From: Candidatus Omnitrophota bacterium
Lineage (GTDB): Bacteria; Omnitrophota; Gorgyraeia; B26-G9
Reading direction: 5' to 3'
Length of the DNA stretch: 64,000 bases
Assembly (NCBI GenBank): GCA_043826565.1
Contig: JBDRPX010000021.1
Location: forward strand, 18,022 to 82,021
This document shows positions 7,150 through 41,637 of the stretch, piece by piece (position 1 is the stretch's first letter; the number at the start of each line of letters is the position of its first letter). The translations under genes and the position numbers were made by a program. Below the pieces are notes generated by a model. It searched no databases. It was not told the origin of the DNA and was given only the letters and a program-made list of their open reading frames with translations.

Positions 7150-9213
7150 ATGTATATACCGCGCAAATTTAAACAGCAGTACTTTATTCTCTTGAGTGTT
7201 TTAGGGATGGTACTGCTTTTTTCTTGCTGCCTTAGGGCGCAGGATGATGACCCCCGGGACAATCTCTATCAAGCCAGAATACTTTTTAATCAGGGAAAAT
7301 ACCAGCAGGCTATCGATGCTTATGAGCCGACTAAGCAGGAAGATTATTTCTTAAAAGTCGCGCTGCTTAATCAGGCGCTGATCTATAAAGATACCCGGCA
7401 GTATGAACAGGCAATTAAGCTCTATAAAAAATTATTGACCATCGAAGAAAATAAGATGGTTTTTTTTAATCTGGGAGAAGTCTATTATTTAAACTGCCTG
7501 CCGGATAAAGCAATTAGCGCGTTTAATCAGGCTTTAAACATGGGCTATCGCAACGGGATGATTTATTTTTGGCTGGGCAGGTGTTTGCAGGATAAGGGGA
7601 ATATCGAAAGTGCCAAGCAGAGTTTTCAGCAGGCTGTGGCCGTGGATGATTCTCTGGTGCTGGCGCATCTTGAATTGGGCAGTATTTACGCGCGCGAAAA
7701 GATCCTGTTAAAAGCTCAGGAGGAATTTGAAAAAGTCCGTGAGCTTGATCCCAGCATAACCGAAGTGTACCCGGCATTAGCGGAAGTTTACTTTGATAAA
7801 AAAGAATATGAAGAGGCTTTAAAAGCGTTTCACAAAGTGCTCACGATTGATCCGGATAATGCCAAAGCCCAGCAATACATTGACCTAATTCATAAGATAG
7901 TGGGTAAGGGATTAAAAAAGGATTTGGAAAAAAAAGAAGAAAAAAGGCTGGAAAGCGCTTTAGCCAAAGAGATCATTCCGAAAGAAGCGCCTACTGCTCC
8001 GGTAGTAAAGGTATTGATCGGAGAAGTAAAAAGTTTCCGGTTTAAATCCGGTAGTGATTTTTCTCTGTGCCGGCAGGCCGACGGAGCGGTGTTATTCAGC
8101 GGTGCCGCTAATACTTTATACGGCTTATCTGAATACGCGGGAAATATTTCTTTACTTAATAACGGAGAAAAGAAAAACAGTTTTACGGAAGCTATCGTAA
8201 TTATTCTGGCTGATCCGCACGCGACAATTCTCCTTTTTAATGTGGAATCCGGAAAAGGAGAATACTGGGCAAGTATAACCGACAGAAGTTATCGCGGGCA
8301 GTTGGAAGTAGCGGCCGCGCCCGGAATTCTGCGCTTAATTAATACGATCAATATGGAAGAATATTTATACGGAGTGGTTCCCAGTGAGATGTCCGCGAAT
8401 TGGCCGCAGGAAGCTTTAAAAGCCCAGGCAGTTGCCGCGCGCAGTGAAGCGTATGTAAAGATGAAACGCCATGCTAAAGAAGGTTATAATTTTTGTCCGG
8501 GAGTACATTGCCAGGTTTACGGCGGAGCAAATGTGGAAGCTAGCTCAACAAATAAAGCCGTAGACCAGACCTGCGGGCAGATCGGTCTTTATGAAGATAA
8601 GCCGATCGACGCGATCTACAGTAATAGCTGCGGCGGACATACCCAGAGTAATATTTTCGGTGAGTGTGAACCGATCCCTTATTTGCAGGGGATTCAGGAT
8701 GTCGCGGAAAATATCGGGTTCTTTTTTCCGCTTTCTCCTCTGGAGCTGGAAGACTGGCTTTGGATGAAGAACATCCCGGCTTTTTGTAATAATGTTAAAT
8801 TTTCCCGGGATAGTAATTTTCGCTGGATGCGCACTTATTCGCGTAAGCAGTTGGAAAAGTTGATCAATAAACAAATGGATATCGGCACATTAAAAGATAT
8901 TATTATCCGGGAAAGAAGCGATTCCTCGCATATCCAAAGAATAGAGATCATCGGCTCAAAGGGTAAGTTTGAGATGAAGAAGGAATTAAATATCCGCAAT
9001 CTGCTGGGTAATCTGCGCAGCAGTATGTTTAATATTGATGTTAAGCTTGATGAAAAAGGCAATCCGGAAGAATTTATCTTTTACGGCGGAGGCTGGGGGC
9101 ATGCGGTGGGGATGTGCCAGGTCGGCGCGGCAACCATGGCCCAACAAGGCTATTCTTATATAGATATACTGAAATTTTATTATAGCGGGATTGAGATAAA
9201 GAGGATGTATTAG
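7150..9213 (+). CDS. TPR-repeat protein fused to a SpoIID/LytB-like domain
   Basis: A signal peptide is followed by several TPR units in the first roughly 250 aa. The C-terminus has the SpoIID signature GHAVGMCQVGAATMAQQGYSYIDILKFYYSGIEI. Confidence 0.75.
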   Translation: MYIPRKFKQQYFILLSVLGMVLLFSCCLRAQDDDPRDNLYQARILFNQGKYQQAIDAYEPTKQEDYFLKVALLNQALIYKDTRQYEQAIKLYKKLLTIEENKMVFFNLGEVYYLNCLPDKAISAFNQALNMGYRNGMIYFWLGRCLQDKGNIESAKQSFQQAVAVDDSLVLAHLELGSIYAREKILLKAQEEFEKVRELDPSITEVYPALAEVYFDKKEYEEALKAFHKVLTIDPDNAKAQQYIDLIHKIVGKGLKKDLEKKEEKRLESALAKEIIPKEAPTAPVVKVLIGEVKSFRFKSGSDFSLCRQADGAVLFSGAANTLYGLSEYAGNISLLNNGEKKNSFTEAIVIILADPHATILLFNVESGKGEYWASITDRSYRGQLEVAAAPGILRLINTINMEEYLYGVVPSEMSANWPQEALKAQAVAARSEAYVKMKRHAKEGYNFCPGVHCQVYGGANVEASSTNKAVDQTCGQIGLYEDKPIDAIYSNSCGGHTQSNIFGECEPIPYLQGIQDVAENIGFFFPLSPLELEDWLWMKNIPAFCNNVKFSRDSNFRWMRTYSRKQLEKLINKQMDIGTLKDIIIRERSDSSHIQRIEIIGSKGKFEMKKELNIRNLLGNLRSSMFNIDVKLDEKGNPEEFIFYGGGWGHAVGMCQVGAATMAQQGYSYIDILKFYYSGIEIKRMY

Positions 9214-9320
9214 GGATGGCGTGTGGTCAGATGCCATTGCAATATAAGCAGTTACAGTATTTTGATTGATTCTCTTGATACTGTATAGTTGATAAAATAC
9301 TAATACTATTAGTATTTAGG

Positions 9321-9349
9321 TTGACAAATTAAACTTTATGATGTATTAT
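9321..9349 (+). promoter_or_regulatory. sigma-70-like promoter (TTGACA-17-TATTAT) giving a near-leaderless transcript of the NTase gene
   Basis: TTGACA lies at 9321-9326, followed by a 17-nt spacer and TATTAT at 9344-9349. The first ATG is at 9358, only about 8 nt downstream. No SD sequence is present. Confidence 0.5.
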
Positions 9350-9357
9350 TGTTGTGT

Positions 9358-10080
9358 ATGGAAGATGTTAATATTAAAATTATAGATGAATATTTAGACA
9401 AAACGTTGGAAGTTTTGTCAGGGGCGATAGATGATTTTTATCTTGCTGGAGGAACTGCTTTGTCAAAGTTTTATTTTGATCACAGAGGTTCTTTCGATTT
9501 AGATTTTTTCACTAAGAAGTTTTCTGAAAAGAGAGTTGAAGAAATCACAACATATATCGGGAAAAAATTAAATTTGCAAGTAAAACTAGCAGGTGTTACT
9601 GATCAAAAAGGAAAGATACAGGTTAGGACATATTATTTAATAATAGATACTGAAAATAAATTAAAACTTGATTTTGTGGAAGATAGATGTCCTGTGTTAA
9701 AGGGGTTAAATAGACGTGATGGAATTTATTTTCTTTCAAAAGAGGATTTATACCTAAGAAAAATATTTGCAATGTGTGGCAGCAGGAAAGATGTTGATGA
9801 TATTGGCCGAGATGCTTTTTTCGGGGGCAGACAAGAATCCAAAGATTATTTTGATGTTTATTGCCTTTCCAGCATTTTTATTCCCTTATCAGATTTTGTA
9901 TTACAATTTTGCGGAGATTCACAAATGGTTGAAAGGTTGATTCTTTGGCAAAGAACTTATGATAGATTTGCCATGAAAAGTGGATTAATAGATTTGATAA
10001 CAAAAACAGTTCCCGATGCGAGATTAATAGAAAAACATTTTGATAAAGAAATTGAAAAATTAATTAAGGCCGTGTCTTAG
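9358..10080 (+). CDS. nucleotidyltransferase of the AbiEii/AbiGii (DUF1814-like) toxin family
   Basis: The motif LAGGTALSKFYFDHRGSFDLDFF matches the GG-x-DxD pol-beta NTase motif typical of AbiEii. The gene lies in an AT-rich block. The start was moved from the track's TTG to ATG 9358. Confidence 0.6.
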   Translation: MEDVNIKIIDEYLDKTLEVLSGAIDDFYLAGGTALSKFYFDHRGSFDLDFFTKKFSEKRVEEITTYIGKKLNLQVKLAGVTDQKGKIQVRTYYLIIDTENKLKLDFVEDRCPVLKGLNRRDGIYFLSKEDLYLRKIFAMCGSRKDVDDIGRDAFFGGRQESKDYFDVYCLSSIFIPLSDFVLQFCGDSQMVERLILWQRTYDRFAMKSGLIDLITKTVPDARLIEKHFDKEIEKLIKAVS

Positions 10081-10100
10081 TAAGTCATAAGAGGAATAAA

Positions 10101-10667
10101 ATGAAAAGAATGTTTTGGGATAAAAATATATCTGAAAATGAAGTTAAACAAATTTTGAAAGATGATAAACAGGAAAGATTTGTTTATTTTGCGGCCATGT
10201 TGCTTTCCAGGGCCAATACTCCACAAATTGTGTTTGAAGAATTTTTAGAGAAAAAATGTTTTGTTAAATCATGGCAAAGGATTAAAAGAAAAATGCGGGA
10301 AAACAAGTGGAATGATAATCGTATTATTTTTTGGGATGCTATTTATAAAGTTTTAAAAGATAACCCAGAATATAAAAACATCAAATCACCCGGCAAGGGA
10401 AGGGAGATTGTTAGTAAAGAATTAGAAAAAATAGGGGGGCAGGTTAGAGCGATGAGAGCGGAGAAACGGATAACTCAACGCGCGCTGGCAATAGAGACAG
10501 GGGTATCGCAGCAAACAATATCGCTTATTGAAAGAGGGTATAGCAATATTTCTTTTTCAACTTTAGAAAAGATTGCAACGGCAGTTGGTTTAACAGTTAG
10601 CATAAGCGTATATCCTGCAGAAAAGATTTCTTTCCAGATGTTTGGTTCTGCCAATACGTCTTCATGA
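10101..10667 (+). CDS. protein with an unknown N-terminal domain and a C-terminal XRE-type HTH
   Basis: The C-terminal RITQRALAIETGVSQQTISLIERGYSNISFSTLEKIATAVGL is an XRE-family helix-turn-helix. It is encoded 20 nt downstream of the NTase gene in the same AT-rich block. Confidence 0.6.
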   Translation: MKRMFWDKNISENEVKQILKDDKQERFVYFAAMLLSRANTPQIVFEEFLEKKCFVKSWQRIKRKMRENKWNDNRIIFWDAIYKVLKDNPEYKNIKSPGKGREIVSKELEKIGGQVRAMRAEKRITQRALAIETGVSQQTISLIERGYSNISFSTLEKIATAVGLTVSISVYPAEKISFQMFGSANTSS

Positions 10668-10712
10668 TAATTCTTGTGTCCAAAAGGTGTAAAAACGCAA
10701 AACAACTTCCCC

Positions 10713-10741
10713 TTGAATTTCACCCCGCAACCTCGTATACT
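10713..10741 (+). promoter_or_regulatory. sigma-70-like promoter (TTGAAT-17-TATACT)
   Basis: TTGAAT at 10713-10718 is followed by a 17-nt spacer and TATACT at 10736-10741. The start codon is at 10750. Confidence 0.45.
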
Positions 10742-10749
10742 ATACCTGT

Positions 10750-11334
10750 ATGAAAAAGATCGATTTTAAGAAAATAACTTATATACTCGTCGGCATTGGG
10801 ATTGTCATGATCATCGGCTGTGCGGTCATGCTGAAACTCTATCTGCGCTCCTACCGGGTGTTTAGAGATATTGACCTTGTGGCTACGGTCCAATGTATGG
10901 AAAAAATTAAAGGAAAGCCGGAACTTGATGTTGTATTTCACGGCGGGCAGTTGTCCGGGGAAAAACGCACTTATCCGTTTACTGCCGATGAATGGGTAAT
11001 TGACTGCCGGATCGTGAAATGGAATTTTTTCCTGGAACTGCTGGGCATGAAAAGGCGCTACCGCTTAGAAAGAATAAGCAGTAGGTACTTTGAGATAAAC
11101 GATGAAAAAAACCTGCCGCGCATTGTTTACGGAATATATTCTGAGCCGGATAAAGTATGGAAGTTCATCTATAAGAACAAAAAATTAATTCCCGGGATTG
11201 ACGCGGTTTACGGCAATAGCGCGTTTGTGCCGTTTGCCAAAGGAAAAATATTTAAAGTCTATATCACCAATACCGGCCTGATGATCAGAGACATCTCGGA
11301 GCAGATAAAAAGAGACTGGCGCTCAGTAGGATAA
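10750..11334 (+). CDS. hypothetical membrane-anchored protein
   Basis: An N-terminal TM helix (ITYILVGIGIVMIIGCAVML) is present. No recognisable domain was found. Confidence 0.45.
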   Translation: MKKIDFKKITYILVGIGIVMIIGCAVMLKLYLRSYRVFRDIDLVATVQCMEKIKGKPELDVVFHGGQLSGEKRTYPFTADEWVIDCRIVKWNFFLELLGMKRRYRLERISSRYFEINDEKNLPRIVYGIYSEPDKVWKFIYKNKKLIPGIDAVYGNSAFVPFAKGKIFKVYITNTGLMIRDISEQIKRDWRSVG

Positions 11335-13552
11335 ACACACAAATCTTAATAACCGCGATTAGCAAGATCGTATTGATTATTCCTAAAATCGGGATAAGGA
11401 AGATCGAAACAAAAATCGCTCCGATAAAAGAGCCCAGCATATCCACAGCATAGAGTATGTTTTTATTTGAGTTTTCCAAATATATTTTATTCGCCAGAGG
11501 AAATTCAAAACCCACCATAAACCCCGCGAAAACAGACAGTATAAATAATATCGGAATAGTTAAGGGGATCGCACTGCTTACGCGAAGATATGTTTGTAAG
11601 CCGAGCAATGCCGGAATACAGGCCAGAGAAAAAACAATAAATAATCCTTCGACTTTAAGTAATAAGCTGGTTCGCATTTTTATTTTATCCAGCTGTTTGG
11701 TCATGAGCATGCCTCCGGAAGTGATCCCGATCATAAACGCGCTGATCAACAGCCCGATATATAAATATACATATCCGTAAAAAGTCTGCAGGCTCAGTAA
11801 AAAAATAAGATTAAGCGCTAAACCGGAAAATCCGCTGAACAGAACCATCAGGGGGATAGGCAAAGCGGGTTTCTTCTTTTTCCCGCGTGATATAAAAAAG
11901 ATAATTATTGTTACGAGCAGAATAAAAACAATTCCCTTGGCTAGGCTCCAGTTAGAAGCATTGGCAAATATTTTTTGGAAACCGGGGGTAAATAAAGCGC
12001 TCCATAAGCCTAATCCATAAAACACACCGATCGGCTCTAAGTCTTTATTTATGCGCGACGGTCTTTTTTCTAAAGAAGCATTGAACCATTGCTTTCGTTC
12101 CGGATTGAGACGTTCTTTAATATAAAAATCCGTAAACAAAGGGCTGTCGATAGAATATTTATTTAACTTAGCGGCGATTTGTTCAGGGCTAAGCAAGATG
12201 TTTTCTTCGGAGGCAAGAAGTATATTATAATAACCCGGGATCACTTCTGTATGGGGAAATACTGAGTTCATGGTGTTGATCGCGCAGTTATTAATATCGA
12301 TCTGTTCATTTGATAAATAACTTAAAGAACCAGGCAAGCTAAAACATATTAATCCGGCATTAGTTAGCTTTTGTTTGGCCAGGTTAAAAAACTCCTGGGT
12401 GTAAAACCGGTTTATTTGCAGAGTTGCCGGAGCCGGCAGGTTCATAATGATCACATCAAAAGTATTGTTGGTGTTTTTCAAAAATAAACGGCCGTCAACA
12501 TGGTGGATATGTAGCCGGGGGTCATTCAGCTCTTTTTCCGTAAGTTCGGTTTTGTATTTTTGGGCCATGCGGATAACTAAAGGATCGAGTTCCGCGTAAT
12601 GCACCTGTTCTACGGGAAATTTTAATATATTGCTGATAATTCCGCCTAAGCCTGAGCCTAAGACCAGGATATTTTTATGCGTCTGGGCAATTCCTAAAGG
12701 AAAATTAACAATATCCTGGGTGAAGACAATATCCGGGGTCGGGATGGTCATAAAAGACATTCCGTCATAATAAAATACATATTGTTCTTCCTGCTGGGTA
12801 ACCGCGATATTACCGTATATGGAATTGCGGTATTCAATAAGGTTAAAGCTTTTCCATTGTTCTCTGAGGGATTGTTTCTCAAGAGTATCGCTGAAGTTAA
12901 AATATCCCAGTAATAAAATAATTACTAAAGCCGGGAAAGCATAGCGATGAATTGTTTTTTTGCTTTTTAAGGTAAGTAAGGTATAAGCGCTGAGGATATT
13001 TATTCCGCTCATGAGAAAAGCGATGTTCATGGAATTAATATAGGGAATTAATAAAAAGGTTAAAATAATCCCGGCCAGGCCAAAACCTACTGCTTCTAAG
13101 AAATAACTTTTACCGATCGCTTGGGTCAGGGAAGTATTCTTAGTTTGTTTATATATCTGGCAGATCAGGGGAAACTGGCCGCCGAGTAAAAATCCTAAAG
13201 GCATCATTATTGCTAAAGAGCAGATTGCGATCGGCCATAAGCCGATTCCTTCTCCGGGAGACGCGGTAAGGATATTTTTTACAATCCGCGCTCCGTAAAT
13301 ACTTAGCGGAAATAATATGCCGGCACTGACCTGGGTCAGAGCATAGACAAGTTTGGGCGAGGACAGTTTTGAACTAAAGAGTCCGAATGTAAAACTGCCC
13401 GCGGCTTCTAATAGCAGCCAATTAGCCAGGATAACTCCGATGATCAGCTCATTACCGTAAAAGACGATTAAAAATTCCCGGATCAAGAGCACTTGTCCGA
13501 TACAGCAGGAAGCACCCATTAAAATTATAAGAAAAGTAATAAATTTAGACAT
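11285..13552 (-). CDS. fused multi-TM membrane domain / spermidine synthase-like (polyamine aminopropyltransferase fold) protein
   Basis: About 12 predicted TM helices are followed by a SpeE-like Rossmann domain (HILVLGSGLGG...HYAELDPLVIRMAQKY...DVIIMNLP). The start was moved to ATG at 13550-13552 (MSKFITF...), because the track start is a TTG. Confidence 0.6.
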   Translation of the reverse strand: MSKFITFLIILMGASCCIGQVLLIREFLIVFYGNELIIGVILANWLLLEAAGSFTFGLFSSKLSSPKLVYALTQVSAGILFPLSIYGARIVKNILTASPGEGIGLWPIAICSLAIMMPLGFLLGGQFPLICQIYKQTKNTSLTQAIGKSYFLEAVGFGLAGIILTFLLIPYINSMNIAFLMSGINILSAYTLLTLKSKKTIHRYAFPALVIILLLGYFNFSDTLEKQSLREQWKSFNLIEYRNSIYGNIAVTQQEEQYVFYYDGMSFMTIPTPDIVFTQDIVNFPLGIAQTHKNILVLGSGLGGIISNILKFPVEQVHYAELDPLVIRMAQKYKTELTEKELNDPRLHIHHVDGRLFLKNTNNTFDVIIMNLPAPATLQINRFYTQEFFNLAKQKLTNAGLICFSLPGSLSYLSNEQIDINNCAINTMNSVFPHTEVIPGYYNILLASEENILLSPEQIAAKLNKYSIDSPLFTDFYIKERLNPERKQWFNASLEKRPSRINKDLEPIGVFYGLGLWSALFTPGFQKIFANASNWSLAKGIVFILLVTIIIFFISRGKKKKPALPIPLMVLFSGFSGLALNLIFLLSLQTFYGYVYLYIGLLISAFMIGITSGGMLMTKQLDKIKMRTSLLLKVEGLFIVFSLACIPALLGLQTYLRVSSAIPLTIPILFILSVFAGFMVGFEFPLANKIYLENSNKNILYAVDMLGSFIGAIFVSIFLIPILGIINTILLIAVIKICVFILLSASLFLSAPRCL

Positions 13553-18894: not shown

Positions 18895-21044
18895 AAACGA
18901 TATATCCAGGAAACTTCGTAGTAACGGCCCCTGGGTTCCCAGTCCCCATTGGCATATTGCAAAGATGCGCGTGTTCTGTTATCAAAAATATTTTTGCAGG
19001 AAAATCTCAAGTCACTGCTTTCTCGCCAAAAGTGTTCCCAAAAAACAGCCATATCAATATAGTAAATCGATCCTGTACTTGTCCATTCATAAACACCGGA
19101 ATTAAGATATGTTTCCCATTCTGCTCCGGACAAAGAAGTTGCTGGTAAAGGATAACGGCGGATGACTTGATTGTGGAAAGATCTTACTGTTGTGGTAAGA
19201 GAAATATCCTTAGTGTATTGGTAGAGCATGCCTAGATTAAGTGTGCTTTCCGGAACACCATTCATCTCTCCTGATGGGTTTTGCACATCTCCGTGGTCTC
19301 CGGATTGAGAACTGGAAAATTTTGCGCTTTGCCAGGAACCATTAACCCATACGGAAAGTGTATTGGTAAGCGGAACATCCCACTGCAGTTCTATTCCTTT
19401 ACCGGAAAAATCACCGATATTAGTAAATCCCGCTTGCCAGGCAATATAGTCGGCGATTCTCTGATTATAGACATTTATACTTAAACGAGATTTTCCGATA
19501 TAATGAATTGATTGTGCTTCATAAGTAGTTAATATTTCCGGTTCTTTTGCCGGGCCAAGGGGTGTTGCCCAGGCAGTCCCGCGTTCAAAATTCCATGCTG
19601 TATTATTTTCCGATTCCCAGGGGGATGGGAATTTTGTCGCTGTGTTCGACATAAGTTTAAACGTCCATTTTTTTGAAGGGATAAAGACTGCGGCTAAACG
19701 CGGAGATAAAAAAACTTTTTCCTCCCGGGTCATGGAGCTTCGATCAGCGCGCAAAGCTCCGATTAAGGTTACGGTATCGTTAAGAGTATATTCTTCTGAA
19801 GCAAAGATACCTATGACCTGATCATCGCTAATATCGACGAGATTGTTTACTGTGCCGGCAACAGTTGGATTTGAAGGGTCATAACTGTTAAAGGTGTAAT
19901 TATGGCGATTATTACTATGTGTAAGCTGAAGCCCGGTTTGAAAGAAATGTCGGTCCTGTTGTGACTGTAAGGCATATTCAAGTCCATATAATTTTTGATG
20001 TGTATCAAGTAAATTGCCGGTCAAGTTTTCTTCGGCGGCTCTTAGGAGCCGTTTATTGTCATAAGAAAATGTTAAGGTATAAATAAGGTCAGGATTTATT
20101 TCAGTTTTATTTTTCAGGACAAAAGCATCAACATAATTATAGCGGGTTGCCTTTCTGTTTAAGCTCTCGCGATTTTGGGAGTATTCAGGAAAGGCTTGAT
20201 TTAAGGAGCTTAATTGCGCTGACCAGTCATCCAAGTCGCCTTTAAAAAACAAAAAAGAACTTGGCCTGGTTATATCAAGTTTTCTAGATAAAACATCTTC
20301 GCCTTCTGAGGCAATTCTTTCTCCGGAATGACGATAAAATCCTTCGCTGGAAAAACCCTGACTTTCCGCATAAGTAGCGGAAGCAAAAAAACTTTTTGTC
20401 GCATCAAATCGTTCTCCACACATGATTGTATTTATAATAGTGTTATCCTGACGATGTGTACCGACAGATACAGTATTTTCTTTGCCGTCAATCTCTTTTG
20501 TTATTAAGTTAACAATCGCGGCTAAAGATTCTGCCGGGTAAAGAACCGACCCTGGTCCGACAATTATTTCGATACGTTCAACAGTATCCAGAGTTATGGG
20601 CAGAGCAAGATCAGTAGATTCATTCACATTGTTTATACGGTGCCCGTTTATCATATAAGTAATTTTATTATTCTCATTAGGAGCTATTCCGCGTATTTGA
20701 GCAATAGGTTCCAAAGGTCTGTAAGAAGTAAAAAATCCGGGGATTCTATCTAAAACATCGCGGATTGTCTGATATCCGTATTTTCGGATTTCATCCTTAG
20801 TTATTACATACATTACATTAGGAGTTGCGTCTAAGGATTCAGCTTTTCGTGAAGCTGTTATTACCTCAGGGATGTCTTGAAAAAGTATTGCTTCCGGAGA
20901 TTCTAATGCATTAGAGGTGCTGGTTAAACTAATAATAATCAAGAATAATTGCCCAAAAATTAACCATATCTTTAAAAAAGAGAATTTTTTTGAAAGCATA
21001 TCAGCTCCTTGTGTAGTATATAATAGTATATTATATAGATTCAA
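18891..21044 (-). CDS. TonB-dependent outer-membrane receptor
   Basis: A signal peptide and plug domain (YVITKDEIRKYGYQTIRDVLDRIPGF) are present. The protein ends with a C-terminal aromatic (...WIYRF). Confidence 0.8.
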   Translation of the reverse strand: MNLYNILLYTTQGADMLSKKFSFLKIWLIFGQLFLIIISLTSTSNALESPEAILFQDIPEVITASRKAESLDATPNVMYVITKDEIRKYGYQTIRDVLDRIPGFFTSYRPLEPIAQIRGIAPNENNKITYMINGHRINNVNESTDLALPITLDTVERIEIIVGPGSVLYPAESLAAIVNLITKEIDGKENTVSVGTHRQDNTIINTIMCGERFDATKSFFASATYAESQGFSSEGFYRHSGERIASEGEDVLSRKLDITRPSSFLFFKGDLDDWSAQLSSLNQAFPEYSQNRESLNRKATRYNYVDAFVLKNKTEINPDLIYTLTFSYDNKRLLRAAEENLTGNLLDTHQKLYGLEYALQSQQDRHFFQTGLQLTHSNNRHNYTFNSYDPSNPTVAGTVNNLVDISDDQVIGIFASEEYTLNDTVTLIGALRADRSSMTREEKVFLSPRLAAVFIPSKKWTFKLMSNTATKFPSPWESENNTAWNFERGTAWATPLGPAKEPEILTTYEAQSIHYIGKSRLSINVYNQRIADYIAWQAGFTNIGDFSGKGIELQWDVPLTNTLSVWVNGSWQSAKFSSSQSGDHGDVQNPSGEMNGVPESTLNLGMLYQYTKDISLTTTVRSFHNQVIRRYPLPATSLSGAEWETYLNSGVYEWTSTGSIYYIDMAVFWEHFWRESSDLRFSCKNIFDNRTRASLQYANGDWEPRGRYYEVSWIYRF

Positions 21045-21128
21045 AAAATCTAATATATAGTATATATTAGACTAAAATTAGAGTCAATAAGTTTAAATAC
21101 AGGAATCATTATTATTTAAAAATTATTC

Positions 21129-21157
21129 TTGACAAGAATCGGTCAGAGTGCTATATT
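21129..21157 (+). promoter_or_regulatory. sigma-70-like promoter (TTGACA-17-TATATT) whose -35 is embedded in the palindrome ATTCTTG-A-CAAGAAT
   Basis: TTGACA lies at 21129-21134 and TATATT at 21152-21157. The 7-1-7 palindrome spans 21125-21139 and is a candidate autoregulatory operator of the downstream Fur-family gene. Confidence 0.45.
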
Positions 21158-21166
21158 TGTCTAATT

Positions 21167-21583
21167 ATGAAAAACAAAATTAATATATTAAAGGAACAGG
21201 GCATTAGAATTACTCCTCAGCGCGTGAGGATATTTGAGCTTTTAGCCGCGGAAAAAAGACATTTGTGTGTTGAGGAACTTTATGAGAAAATAAAAGAATC
21301 ATTTCCCGCGGTTTCTTTGGCAACAGTGTATTCTATTTTAGAGCTTTTAAAAAAAAAAGGAATAATTCGCGAGATCAGGATTAAGTTTGATAAATCTTGT
21401 TATGAAGCAAGAACTGATCTGCATCATCATTTTTCCTGCAGGAAATGCAAAAAGATTTTTGATATTGATCTAACCCCGTGTCCGGCATTACAGAGCAAAG
21501 AAATTAACGGGCATATAATCGAGGAATTACAGGGATATTTTTACGGAATCTGCCGGGATTGCAAGGAGATAAACAGTGAATGA
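21167..21583 (+). CDS. Fur-family transcriptional regulator (PerR-like by context)
   Basis: ITPQRVRIFELLAAEKRHLCVEELYEKIK is the DNA-binding helix, and HHHF...CRKC...CRDC are the metal sites. It heads the peroxide-stress gene cluster. Confidence 0.8.
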   Translation: MKNKINILKEQGIRITPQRVRIFELLAAEKRHLCVEELYEKIKESFPAVSLATVYSILELLKKKGIIREIRIKFDKSCYEARTDLHHHFSCRKCKKIFDIDLTPCPALQSKEINGHIIEELQGYFYGICRDCKEINSE

Positions 21584-29941: not shown

Positions 29942-30104
29942 CAAAAGTCAAAGGTCAAAACTCAAAACTGCAAGTTAAAAGTCAAAAATAATCAAGAAAG
30001 ATTTTAATTGTTAGTATTTTTAATAATATAACTTTATGATAATAAATAAGTTTTAAATTTTGAATTGAATTTTTGAATTTTGCCTTTTGATTTTTGACAT
30101 ATAA
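29942..30104. repeat. imperfect inverted repeats built from TCAAAA(C)/GTTTTGA heptamer-like units flanking an AT-rich core
   Basis: The left arm aaaagtcaaaggtcaaaactcaaaactgcaagttaaaagtcaaaaat faces the right arm aaattttgaattgaatttttgaattttgccttttgatttttgacat. Related units are at 30414-30450 and 30733-30757. Confidence 0.4.
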
Positions 30105-30188
30105 AGCAGGTTAGTTAGAAAAACTTACTGATAAATATTGAATTAACTTAGAATTTTGACAATACGGGTAAGGAATAGGGAGGTTGTT

Positions 30189-30371
30189 ATGATAGAAAAA
30201 ATATTAAGAGGCATGGCGGGGTTTTTTATTTTAGTAAGTTTGGCATTAGCGCATTTTGTTGACCCCCGATGGCTGTGGTTTACGGCGTTTGTGGGATTAA
30301 ATCTTTTGCAATCGGCATTTACGAATTGGTGCCCGATGATGACAATACTTAAAAAAATTGGGGTAAAATAG
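30189..30371 (+). CDS. DUF2892-family small membrane protein
   Basis: MIEKILRGMAGFFILVSLALAHFV...WCPMM is typical of DUF2892. GGGAGG lies 7 nt upstream of ATG 30189. Confidence 0.55.
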   Translation: MIEKILRGMAGFFILVSLALAHFVDPRWLWFTAFVGLNLLQSAFTNWCPMMTILKKIGVK

Positions 30372-30466
30372 GGTTGCATGTTGCAGGTTTCATGTAACAG
30401 GTTTTTTTTGTCCGGGTTGTGACTTGAAACTTGAGATAAGCTTGACATTGAATCAGGAGAATAAAT

Positions 30467-30688
30467 ATGCCGATTTACACATATGTATGTAAAGACTGCG
30501 GGGAGCAGTTTGACTTGTTAGTGGGAGTGACCAGCGATAAGACCGCGAAAAAATGCTCCAAATGCGGAAGTAAAAAAATCGAGAAAATATTTTCCGCCTT
30601 CAGTGTCGGAAAACAGACTAAAGCATGCGGATTTAAACCCAGCACCTGTCCAACTTCTGGCAAAGGATGCTGTCCGGGGTGCCAATAA
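30467..30688 (+). CDS. FmdB-family zinc-ribbon protein
   Basis: MPIYTYVCKDCGEQFDLLV...KCSKCGS is the FmdB/zinc-ribbon signature. Confidence 0.7.
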   Translation: MPIYTYVCKDCGEQFDLLVGVTSDKTAKKCSKCGSKKIEKIFSAFSVGKQTKACGFKPSTCPTSGKGCCPGCQ

Positions 30689-40494: not shown

Positions 40495-40664
40495 CGTCTT
40501 ATTAATAAAATAGTTAAGTAAATTATTAAAAAGACTATTGACAAATAATTTTTTTTCATTATAATTACTAGTAAAGAGATAGTAATACTAGTGATTAAAT
40601 AATCTTCTTCGGGAGTGAGTGTTATTAGGCTATATATACTAGTAAAGCAATGGAAAAGTAGGGT

Positions 40665-40892
40665 ATGAATATGGATCATCCAAAAAGATCGTTAATCAAA
40701 GCACTTTCATGGAGAACGTTTGGTTTTATTACTACAACTGTAATTGTTTATATTTATAGTGGTAACGTTGCGGAATCATTTGCTGTGGGTATAGGGGTGG
40801 AGAGTGTAAAGCTATTGTTGTATTACATGCATGAGAGAATTTGGAATAAGGTGGAGTATGGGAGAGTGAAAGAACCAGAGTATCAAATTTAG
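40665..40892 (+). CDS. DUF2061-family small membrane protein
   Basis: SWRTFGFITTTVIVYIYSG matches DUF2061. It directly precedes cysH. Confidence 0.5.
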   Translation: MNMDHPKRSLIKALSWRTFGFITTTVIVYIYSGNVAESFAVGIGVESVKLLLYYMHERIWNKVEYGRVKEPEYQI

Positions 40893-40920
40893 TTGATAAT
40901 TAAGAACGAGGAGGTTAAAT

Positions 40921-41637
40921 ATGGGATTACTGGAAGCTAAAGAAGATATTAGATCATTGGTGGAAAATTTGAATTTTAAGGAAAAAGTTGATCGGTCTTT
41001 GCGTTTGATTGGAGAAGTATATGAAAAATATGGAGACGGATTAGTTGTTGCTAATAGCTTAGGTAAGGATTCAGTGGTGGTGTGGGATTTGGCTAAAAGA
41101 GTAAGTGTTAATATTCAGGGTTTTATTGTAACGACCAGATTTAAGCCTGTAGAAACTGTGGCATTTATGAATGAGGAAGTAGCGCGTTATCCGGAATTGA
41201 AGGTCTATAAAAATGATGTTAGAATTCCGGAAAAATTGTATGAGACAAACCCTGACCAATGTTGTGATCTGTTAAAAGTAGATCCGGTAAAAAGAGCGGT
41301 TGAAGAAATGAAAGTGAGTTGCTGGGTCACTGGTCTGCGTTGTACAGAGGGGCGAACACGTACAGATTACAAGGAAGTTGAGGAAAGAGATAAAGACTTA
41401 TTAAAACTTAATCCTATTCTTATTTGGAAAGAACGCGAAGTTTGGCAGTATTTAGCTGTATATGGTGTAAAGGTGAATTCATTGTATGCGCAAGGGTATC
41501 GTTCTTTAGGATGCTTGCCATGTACAAAGATAACAAGTGATGATAATGAACGTGCCGGCCGCTGGATCGGGACAAGTAAGTGCGGCGGAGAGTGTGGCAT
41601 TCATACCAGACCGCTAAAAACAGTGCAAGGGAGCTAA
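40921..41637 (+). CDS. cysH: phosphoadenosine/adenosine phosphosulfate reductase (CysH family, Fe-S type with CC...CxxC)
   Basis: A PAPS-reductase fold is present. CC is at DQCCDLL and CxxC at GCLPC. The C-terminal ECGIH catalytic motif is present. Confidence 0.8.
   Translation: MGLLEAKEDIRSLVENLNFKEKVDRSLRLIGEVYEKYGDGLVVANSLGKDSVVVWDLAKRVSVNIQGFIVTTRFKPVETVAFMNEEVARYPELKVYKNDVRIPEKLYETNPDQCCDLLKVDPVKRAVEEMKVSCWVTGLRCTEGRTRTDYKEVEERDKDLLKLNPILIWKEREVWQYLAVYGVKVNSLYAQGYRSLGCLPCTKITSDDNERAGRWIGTSKCGGECGIHTRPLKTVQGS

Follow-up and report, generated by a model that had tools for sequence, protein, structure and literature searches.

What is the AT-rich, two-gene block at positions 9214-10749 of a 64,000-nt stretch of a Candidatus Omnitrophota contig (JBDRPX010000021.1; hereafter the window), and why does it lie between a SpoIID-TPR gene and a gene for a 194-aa protein? 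Omnitrophota is a phylum of mostly uncultured and often host-dependent nanobacteria, in which mobile elements and phage defences are poorly known. Nucleotidyltransferases (NTases) of the DUF1814/AbiEii type form one of the most widespread toxin families. The block, approximately 1.5 kb long, is probably a mobile, self-regulated toxin-antitoxin (TA) or abortive-infection cassette of two genes, with the toxin gene first. An initial interpretation made from the letters alone (the sequence-only reading) had described it as an inserted AT-rich island carrying an AbiEii-type NTase and a helix-turn-helix (HTH) protein, with inverted gene order and a leaderless transcript. That description has held in nearly every part, and its claim about gene order has to be narrowed.

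The first open reading frame (ORF; 9358-10080, forward strand) encodes a putative toxin of 240 aa, counted from the ATG, which carries LAGGTALSKFYFDHRGSFDLDFF. The ATG at 9358 is favoured as the start by NCBI annotation (P0001, 240 aa) and by homologue alignments, whereas a mechanical ORF list begins at TTG 9349. Membership in the AbiEii family is directly supported by a match of residues 24-179 to Pfam PF08843 (E=2e-14; 54.6 bits against a gathering score of 22.5). Eleven PADLOC AbiEii models also match the protein weakly, with a best value of 1.6e-6. A weak secondary Pfam match is to DUF6036, an NTase of unknown function, and an NCBIfam search with the NTase returned no family. More than 300 NTase homologues were recovered by protein search, nearly all from Omnitrophota where the organism is named, and PF08843 is present in all 120 listed homologues except P0004, a truncated fragment of 156 aa.

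The pol-beta signature of this family is intact. The NTase contains hG[GS]x9-14DhD (G31 G32...D47-L-D49), followed by D105, K135 and R158..D163..D166, in agreement with the GG-x(n)-DxD motif of the sequence-only reading. Across 78 homologues, G31, G32, H42, R43, S45, D49, D105, K135, R158 and D166 are conserved without exception, and D47 and D163 are conserved in 77. Equivalence to DUF1814 motifs I-IV, as defined by Dy et al. (2014), was set by motif order and not by structural superposition. With all of its catalytic motifs in place, the NTase looks catalytically competent. The serine of S45-F-D47, found in all 78 sequences, lies two residues before the first Asp of DxD. Phospho-acceptor positions described in the literature include T39 of MenT1 (D41 being next), S78 of MenT3 and T65 of AbiEii, which are autophosphorylated on antitoxin binding. 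By motif order, Ser45 is the predicted occupant of this MenT/AbiEii phospho-acceptor position.

The second gene of the pair (10101-10667, forward strand) encodes a partner of 188 aa, and its ATG is preceded at a distance of 5 nt by a Shine-Dalgarno (SD) motif, AGAGGA (10090-10095), read from the sequence. The partner has a two-part structure, as had been surmised. Its C-terminus is an XRE/Cro-type HTH (residues 115-166; 10443-10598) recognized by Pfam HTH_3 with E=1e-12, and no Pfam, NCBIfam or PADLOC model covers residues 1-105. The HTH is also matched by the PADLOC models HTH_VI and Control_protein, the latter from restriction-modification (R-M) systems. In a Foldseek comparison of the full partner model with the PDB, matches were obtained only to XRE HTH proteins; the nearest folds are the controller proteins C.AhdI, C.BclI and C.Esp1396I, followed by ClgR and HipB (template-modelling score 0.7-0.86 on the target; root-mean-square deviation 1.1-1.4 A). 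The view that the partner is unlike AbiEi was confirmed in that no AbiEi model in Pfam, NCBIfam or PADLOC matches it at E<=1.

The N-terminal domain of the partner (residues 1-90; 10101-10370) is strongly conserved, and an AlphaFold2 model predicts five helices with a mean local confidence (pLDDT) of 89 and a predicted template-modelling score (pTM) of 0.80. Its invariant residues are W6, D7, F27, A31, R37, V44, F54, W58, I61, K62, M65, R66, W70, R74 and W78. A sequence profile of the domain retrieved nothing from the PDB, and a Foldseek search of its model against the PDB and BFVD gave no match with E<1. A protein search with the partner found 14 homologues. When the N-domain profile was compared with 1.84 billion representative proteins, only 117 clusters were found; the domain is always N-terminal in them, mostly in proteins of 165-205 aa. 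The possibility of a HEPN-like domain was considered and rejected, there being no conserved His, no Rx4-6H motif and no PDB fold match.

Some partner homologues (P0162, P0163, P0164, P0166 and P0168) are long proteins in which the N-domain and HTH_3 are followed by Mrr_cat, TPR and/or PIN domains of the PIN-TPR-GreABC type. One of them, P0164, is identical to a 755-aa ORF of locus L045 (3678-5945), which still has an AbiEii NTase gene and a leaderless promoter directly upstream. These proteins suggest that larger defence proteins also make use of the NTase-binding unit. Effector-like Mrr_cat, TPR and PIN-TPR-GreABC domains on partners P0162-P0168 would also suit a different division of labour, as in type VII HEPN-MNT-like systems, in which the NTase nucleotidylylates and silences its partner; the partner would then be the effector or sensor and the NTase its safety catch. 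The order of the genes, NTase and then partner, matches that of MNT-then-HEPN modules. However, the common partners of 165-205 aa carry no effector domain of any kind, the features that led to rejection of a HEPN-like fold tell equally against this arrangement, and the characterized PF08843 proteins cited are all toxins, so that such a role for the NTase is quite unlikely.

Related loci show that the two genes belong together. A scan of one genome per species, with ORFs searched by the analysis's own hidden Markov models, gave 80 independent loci. A partner with both N-domain and HTH lies directly 3' of the NTase gene on the same strand in approximately 75 of the 80, mostly in metagenome-assembled genomes (MAGs) of Omnitrophota; the NTase-HTH pairing seen in the window is therefore not a one-off. 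Of the five loci with no partner match, L060 and L085 are cut by contig ends, L069 and L045 appear to be fusions or extensions, and L084 has another partner. The NTase gene precedes the partner gene in the window and, without exception, in the related loci that have both. Occurrences outside Omnitrophota are in MAGs labelled Thermodesulfovibrionia, WOR-1, Hydrogenedentes and some Planctomycetia. The stop-to-start distance is -4 nt (an ATGA overlap) in 39 of 77 loci and lies between -1 and +2 nt in another 27, and this tight spacing indicates that the genes are transcribed together, in many cases with coupled translation. SD-like motifs precede 49 of the 77 partner genes. In public records the two genes are annotated independently of each other, one as "AbiEii/AbiGii toxin family protein" and the other as "helix-turn-helix transcriptional regulator".

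Several individual loci depart from this plan. In L069 (454-1719), a single ORF of 421 aa matches the NTase (residues 13-201), part of the N-domain (229-274) and the HTH (337-389); it may have arisen by natural fusion or reflect a frameshift in the assembly. L084 (2899-4181), from a Deltaproteobacteria MAG, and L086 (2402-3702), from plasmid 3 of Variovorax sp. WDL1, encode distant AbiEii NTases of 31-34% identity. Their NTase genes overlap by 4 nt with the next gene, whose products of 172-186 aa end in a winged HTH, assigned in L084 to PF25212 HVO_A0114 (E=2e-10) and in L086 weakly to TrmB. Both of these partners contain an N-terminal FWS...W..I...WDALW pattern colinear with the N-domain. Remote homology was tried with hhalign, and the alignment is colinear and not significant; no homology is therefore claimed. 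These loci may belong to a wider toxin-first superfamily in which DNA-binding domains have been swapped. In L057 (4496-6134) and L067 (3046-4736), about 0.3 kb downstream of the module, there is an ORF of approximately 275 aa and after it one of approximately 270 aa with weak likeness to AbiEii (E ~1e-5). This second pair looks like a canonical, regulator-first AbiE, and two NTase modules may be clustered at these loci.

The DNA ahead of the NTase gene is equally distinctive. An AT-rich intergenic stretch of 144 nt (GC 0.30) contains a sigma-70-type promoter at 9321-9349 (forward strand), with TTGACA at 9321-9326, a spacer of 17 nt and TATTAT at 9344-9349, which matches the consensus at 11 of 12 positions and is common to related loci. 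The -10 element is separated by 8 nt from the ATG at 9358 and there is no SD motif, as the sequence-only reading had it. Such a layout implies a leaderless NTase mRNA, the ATG standing at or beside the predicted transcription start. NTase starts in the related loci were chosen by alignment to the family model, and 491 other ORF starts of the same loci served as controls. A promoter of at least 10/12, whose -10 stops 5-9 nt short of the start codon and with no SD, precedes 56 of the 77 NTase genes and 6 of the 491 controls. The commonest distance from -10 to start codon is 6 nt, which places the A of the ATG at the usual +1. Among 44 gene-like ORFs of the window, an SD-like motif is present in 32 and a promoter of this kind in 2 only, these being the NTase gene (11/12) and its downstream neighbour (9/12). 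A divergent subclade, L064-L082, has leaders of 16-47 nt, some with an SD; leaderless starts therefore characterize the main clade without being universal. An Rfam scan of 8800-11500 matched no RNA family, and there is therefore no sign of an RNA antitoxin or riboswitch in this region.

Palindromes accompany this promoter. In the window, the candidate operator O1 (9295-9317) is a perfect palindrome, AAATACTAATA-c-TATTAGTATTT, of 11+1+11 nt with 100% complementarity, just 5' of the -35 element. It occurs only once in the window, in which other operator copies are not beyond chance. Related loci mostly have a palindrome at the same spot, from about -62 to -41 relative to the start codon. When 55 promoters were aligned at the DNA level on the -35 element, most contained two palindromes: O1, just 5' of the -35 and typically TACAACTTATAAGTTGTA, and a second operator, O2, which in the main clade occupies the spacer and extends into the -10, typically as ATACAAC-N6-GTTGTAT. 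The half-sites vary by subclade (TACAAC, TACTAA or TACCAA), and this variation is the pattern expected of operators that evolve together with their repressor. Two precedents from the literature are similar in outline: AbiEi controls its own promoter by way of two inverted repeats (Dy et al. 2014), and controller-protein circuits use two operators and a leaderless first cistron in timing the expression of a toxic gene.

A promoter in AT-rich DNA may of course arise by chance, and so may the adjacency of two ORFs that are unrelated or are decaying remnants. The 2.6-kb region contains 7 promoter-like sites where 9.2 are expected from shuffled sequence, so promoter-like strings as such are not enriched here. 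In contrast, dozens of loci at 33-61% protein identity have kept the two genes together and in this order, along with the promoter geometry and the palindromes, and both ORFs are intact with invariant motifs. A chance origin is accordingly a very distant prospect.

The block also stands apart from its surroundings in composition and position. A GC profile gave 0.326 for the two module genes and 0.411 for the window, which places the module among the lowest 0.6% of 1310-nt sliding windows. Across related loci, module GC follows that of the host (r=0.80) and is lower than flank GC in 48 of 53, with a mean difference of -4.6 points (Wilcoxon p=2e-8). The insert begins directly after the stop (9213) of the SpoIID-TPR gene (7150-9213, forward strand; domains from Pfam) and ends before the ATG (10750) of the 194-aa gene. 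The product of the latter has a hydrophobic N-terminal stretch and no Pfam match; both flanks are as the sequence-only reading had described them. Two further contigs were found through a protein search for the 194-aa neighbour and contig look-ups, and a metagenome scan for the same neighbour found nothing. In L088, a related metagenome contig, 34 nt separate the gene for a SpoIID homologue, 75% identical in its last 98 residues, from that for the 194-aa homologue, and this is an empty site. In L087 (2624-6000), the equivalent spot is filled by a fur-feoB-feoA iron-uptake cluster; the window has its own Fur gene elsewhere, at 21167-21583. Because L088 is empty and L087 holds other cargo, 9214-10749 is a cassette in a variable intergenic spot, and the gap between SpoIID-TPR and the 194-aa gene is a recurrent variable site. 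The ends of the cassette bear no terminal direct or inverted repeats.

The flanks of the module are not conserved between loci. Homologues encoded within approximately 3 kb of the module are common to only 63 of 2926 pairs of loci, and none matches the flanks in the window. Seven otherwise unrelated loci (L017, L026, L034, L037, L054, L058 and L059) have homologous flanking ORFs of approximately 120-130 aa and 400 aa, which could be a preferred neighbourhood.

Context of this kind bears on whether the pair is harmful at all. Enzymes of resistance and repair are found among NTases of the pol-beta fold, the present family is too distant from MenT for detection in the PDB by sequence, and its weak secondary match is to DUF6036. 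It could be supposed from this that the NTase acts on a benign substrate such as a small molecule or antibiotic, or repairs RNA, with an XRE repressor alongside and no part in addiction or defence. Yet AbiEii is the best and the only significant family for the protein, and the S-x-D-x-D signature is strictly conserved. Moreover, coupled genes, patchy mobile spread, unrelated flanks, low GC and a partner domain exclusive to this NTase are together typical of TA and defence modules. A non-toxic accessory pair is therefore unlikely, and a TA or abortive-infection cassette is the preferred explanation.

In such a cassette, which may serve addiction, phage defence or both, the NTase would be the toxin; if it acts as MenT and AbiEii do, it would stop growth through the addition of nucleotides to the 3' ends of tRNAs. 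The partner would combine antidote and repressor in one protein. Its N-domain may bind the NTase and switch it off by sequestration, by induced autophosphorylation of Ser45, or by both, and a dimer of its HTH would repress the strong promoter through the O1/O2 palindromes, as the conserved operator-like DNA suggests. Transcription from this promoter would begin at or beside the NTase ATG, and the toxin would be read from a leaderless message. If translation of the leaderless toxin gene is inefficient, and the partner is translated through its SD or by coupling at the 4-nt overlap, the antidote could be kept in excess despite the toxin-first order.

A fuller proposal goes beyond the cassette itself and is put forward tentatively, at somewhat less than an even chance. 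The five-helix domain may be a new class of antitoxin for AbiEii-type NTases, which would act by binding the toxin and inducing autophosphorylation at Ser45 and would be fused to a controller-like HTH in a toxin-first operon, with leaderless translation setting the ratio of the two proteins. The same domain may also recruit the NTase to Mrr, TPR and PIN proteins, in a modular family found mostly in Omnitrophota and neighbouring uncultured phyla.

Several observations weigh against the cassette as described. A PDB search with the NTase family profile found no MenT or AbiEii chain, only a spurious match to TRIM69, and the family is by this measure remote from the solved MenT proteins and the characterized toxins. 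The role of the N-domain is proposed from position and conservation, and the domain has no detectable similarity to known antitoxins. Extensions resembling Mrr nucleases, TPR and PIN domains on some partners are odd for a simple antitoxin. In the window itself, the gap between the two genes is 20 nt, with a separate SD for the partner, at the loose end of the family range; and at the O2 position (9327-9347), which is degenerate, only the right half GATGTAT (9340-9346) is like the family GTTGTAT, as is likewise the case in the window's subclade. Mobility is inferred from genomic context and not from a known vehicle: IMG/VR viral contigs contain no relatives of the NTase, and a plasmid collection contains one distant relative, 31% identical, from Variovorax.

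The significance of the locus lies in the partner and in the regulatory design. The partner domain and the conserved leaderless, dual-palindrome arrangement are new; toxins of this family, TA logic and a toxin-first order had all been described before. No paper was found in the literature on this partner family or on AbiEii modules in Omnitrophota. It has recently been argued that antitoxins of very different kinds share one mode of action, the induction of toxin autophosphorylation. A third, unrelated type of partner would offer a natural test of the generality of this mechanism, and the strict pairing, the intact serine at the phospho-acceptor position and a compact domain modelled at high confidence make the module suitable for one. 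The conserved geometry of the module, in which palindromes lie on both sides of a consensus promoter and the start codon is placed at +1, makes it an unusually clean case in which leaderless translation may set the toxin-to-antitoxin ratio of toxin-first operons. The locus also documents a probable mobile defence or TA cassette in Omnitrophota. The overall view of TA biology is unchanged, and the addition is incremental but well-defined.

Other features of the window lie outside the cassette. The 194-aa gene (forward strand) and a 783-aa spermine-synthase-like membrane gene (reverse strand) overlap tail to tail by 50 nt (11285-11334), and an identical 50-nt convergent overlap of the two homologous genes was called at L087 (6551-6600). 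Within 10713-10752, the sequence TTGAAT-17-TATACT (9/12) resembles a promoter for the 194-aa gene; it ends 8 nt from the ATG, and no SD is present. This site is not kept in L087, where there is a leader with an SD, and it may be due to chance. Further dips in GC (0.30-0.32) correspond to the Fur gene and intergenic DNA at 21001-21500 and to a small Zn-ribbon gene at 30001-30500, and a dip at 40501-41000 is a gene for a DUF2061 membrane protein beside a macro-domain gene. No further TA-like pairs were found at the dips near 21.0, 30.0 and 40.5 kb.

Among known systems, AbiE and MenAT are the closest by toxin. Their toxins belong to the same Pfam family (PF08843/DUF1814) and share GG...DxD, the third Asp, the Lys, R..D..D and an S/T at the phospho-acceptor position; the bicistronic operon, the inverted repeats in the promoter (here as candidate operators) and the mobility are shared as well. 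The partner differs, in that it is not of the COG5340/AbiEi type, has no N-terminal winged HTH and carries an XRE HTH at its C-terminus together with a novel five-helix bundle. PADLOC would consequently call no complete AbiE system here, since an AbiEi is missing. A leaderless toxin mRNA is predicted, and the NTase has diverged too far for sequence searches to reach the MenT structures. Gene order is a further difference, since canonical AbiE has the antitoxin or regulator gene first (Dy et al. 2014). The inverted order noted in the sequence-only reading is indeed unusual with respect to AbiE and MenAT; it is not unprecedented for DUF1814 toxins, as SanaTA, SdenTA and RlegTA, which were obtained from shotgun-cloning screens, are also toxin-first (2026 preprint). 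Like the present module, these systems consist of a DUF1814 NTase gene followed by a small antitoxin gene, and they are linked to phage defence; SanaTA restricts T7 lacking gp4.5 (2026 preprint). The antitoxins RlegA and SdenA are COG5340-like and SanaA is distantly so (2026 preprint), whereas the partner described here has an XRE HTH and no AbiEi/COG5340 likeness by Pfam or Foldseek; the antitoxins are set apart here by their descriptions.

The remaining comparisons concern layout and regulation. HigBA and MqsRA resemble the module in layout only, with the toxin first and a two-domain antitoxin that has a C-terminal XRE HTH and, as in MqsA, an N-terminal toxin-binding domain. Their toxins are RelE-like RNases and not NTases, and the N-domain of MqsA is a zinc ribbon with no similarity to that of the partner. 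The controller (C) proteins of R-M systems provide the nearest HTH fold. Their circuits, like the one proposed for the module, combine a pair of palindromic operators at the promoter with a leaderless first cistron and regulate a toxic product. However, C proteins are approximately 80 aa long and encoded first, whereas the controller here is encoded second and has an additional N-domain of 90 aa, and there are no R-M genes beside the module. The promoters of C-protein circuits are weak and dependent on activation; the promoter here is near-consensus, and repression is therefore expected.

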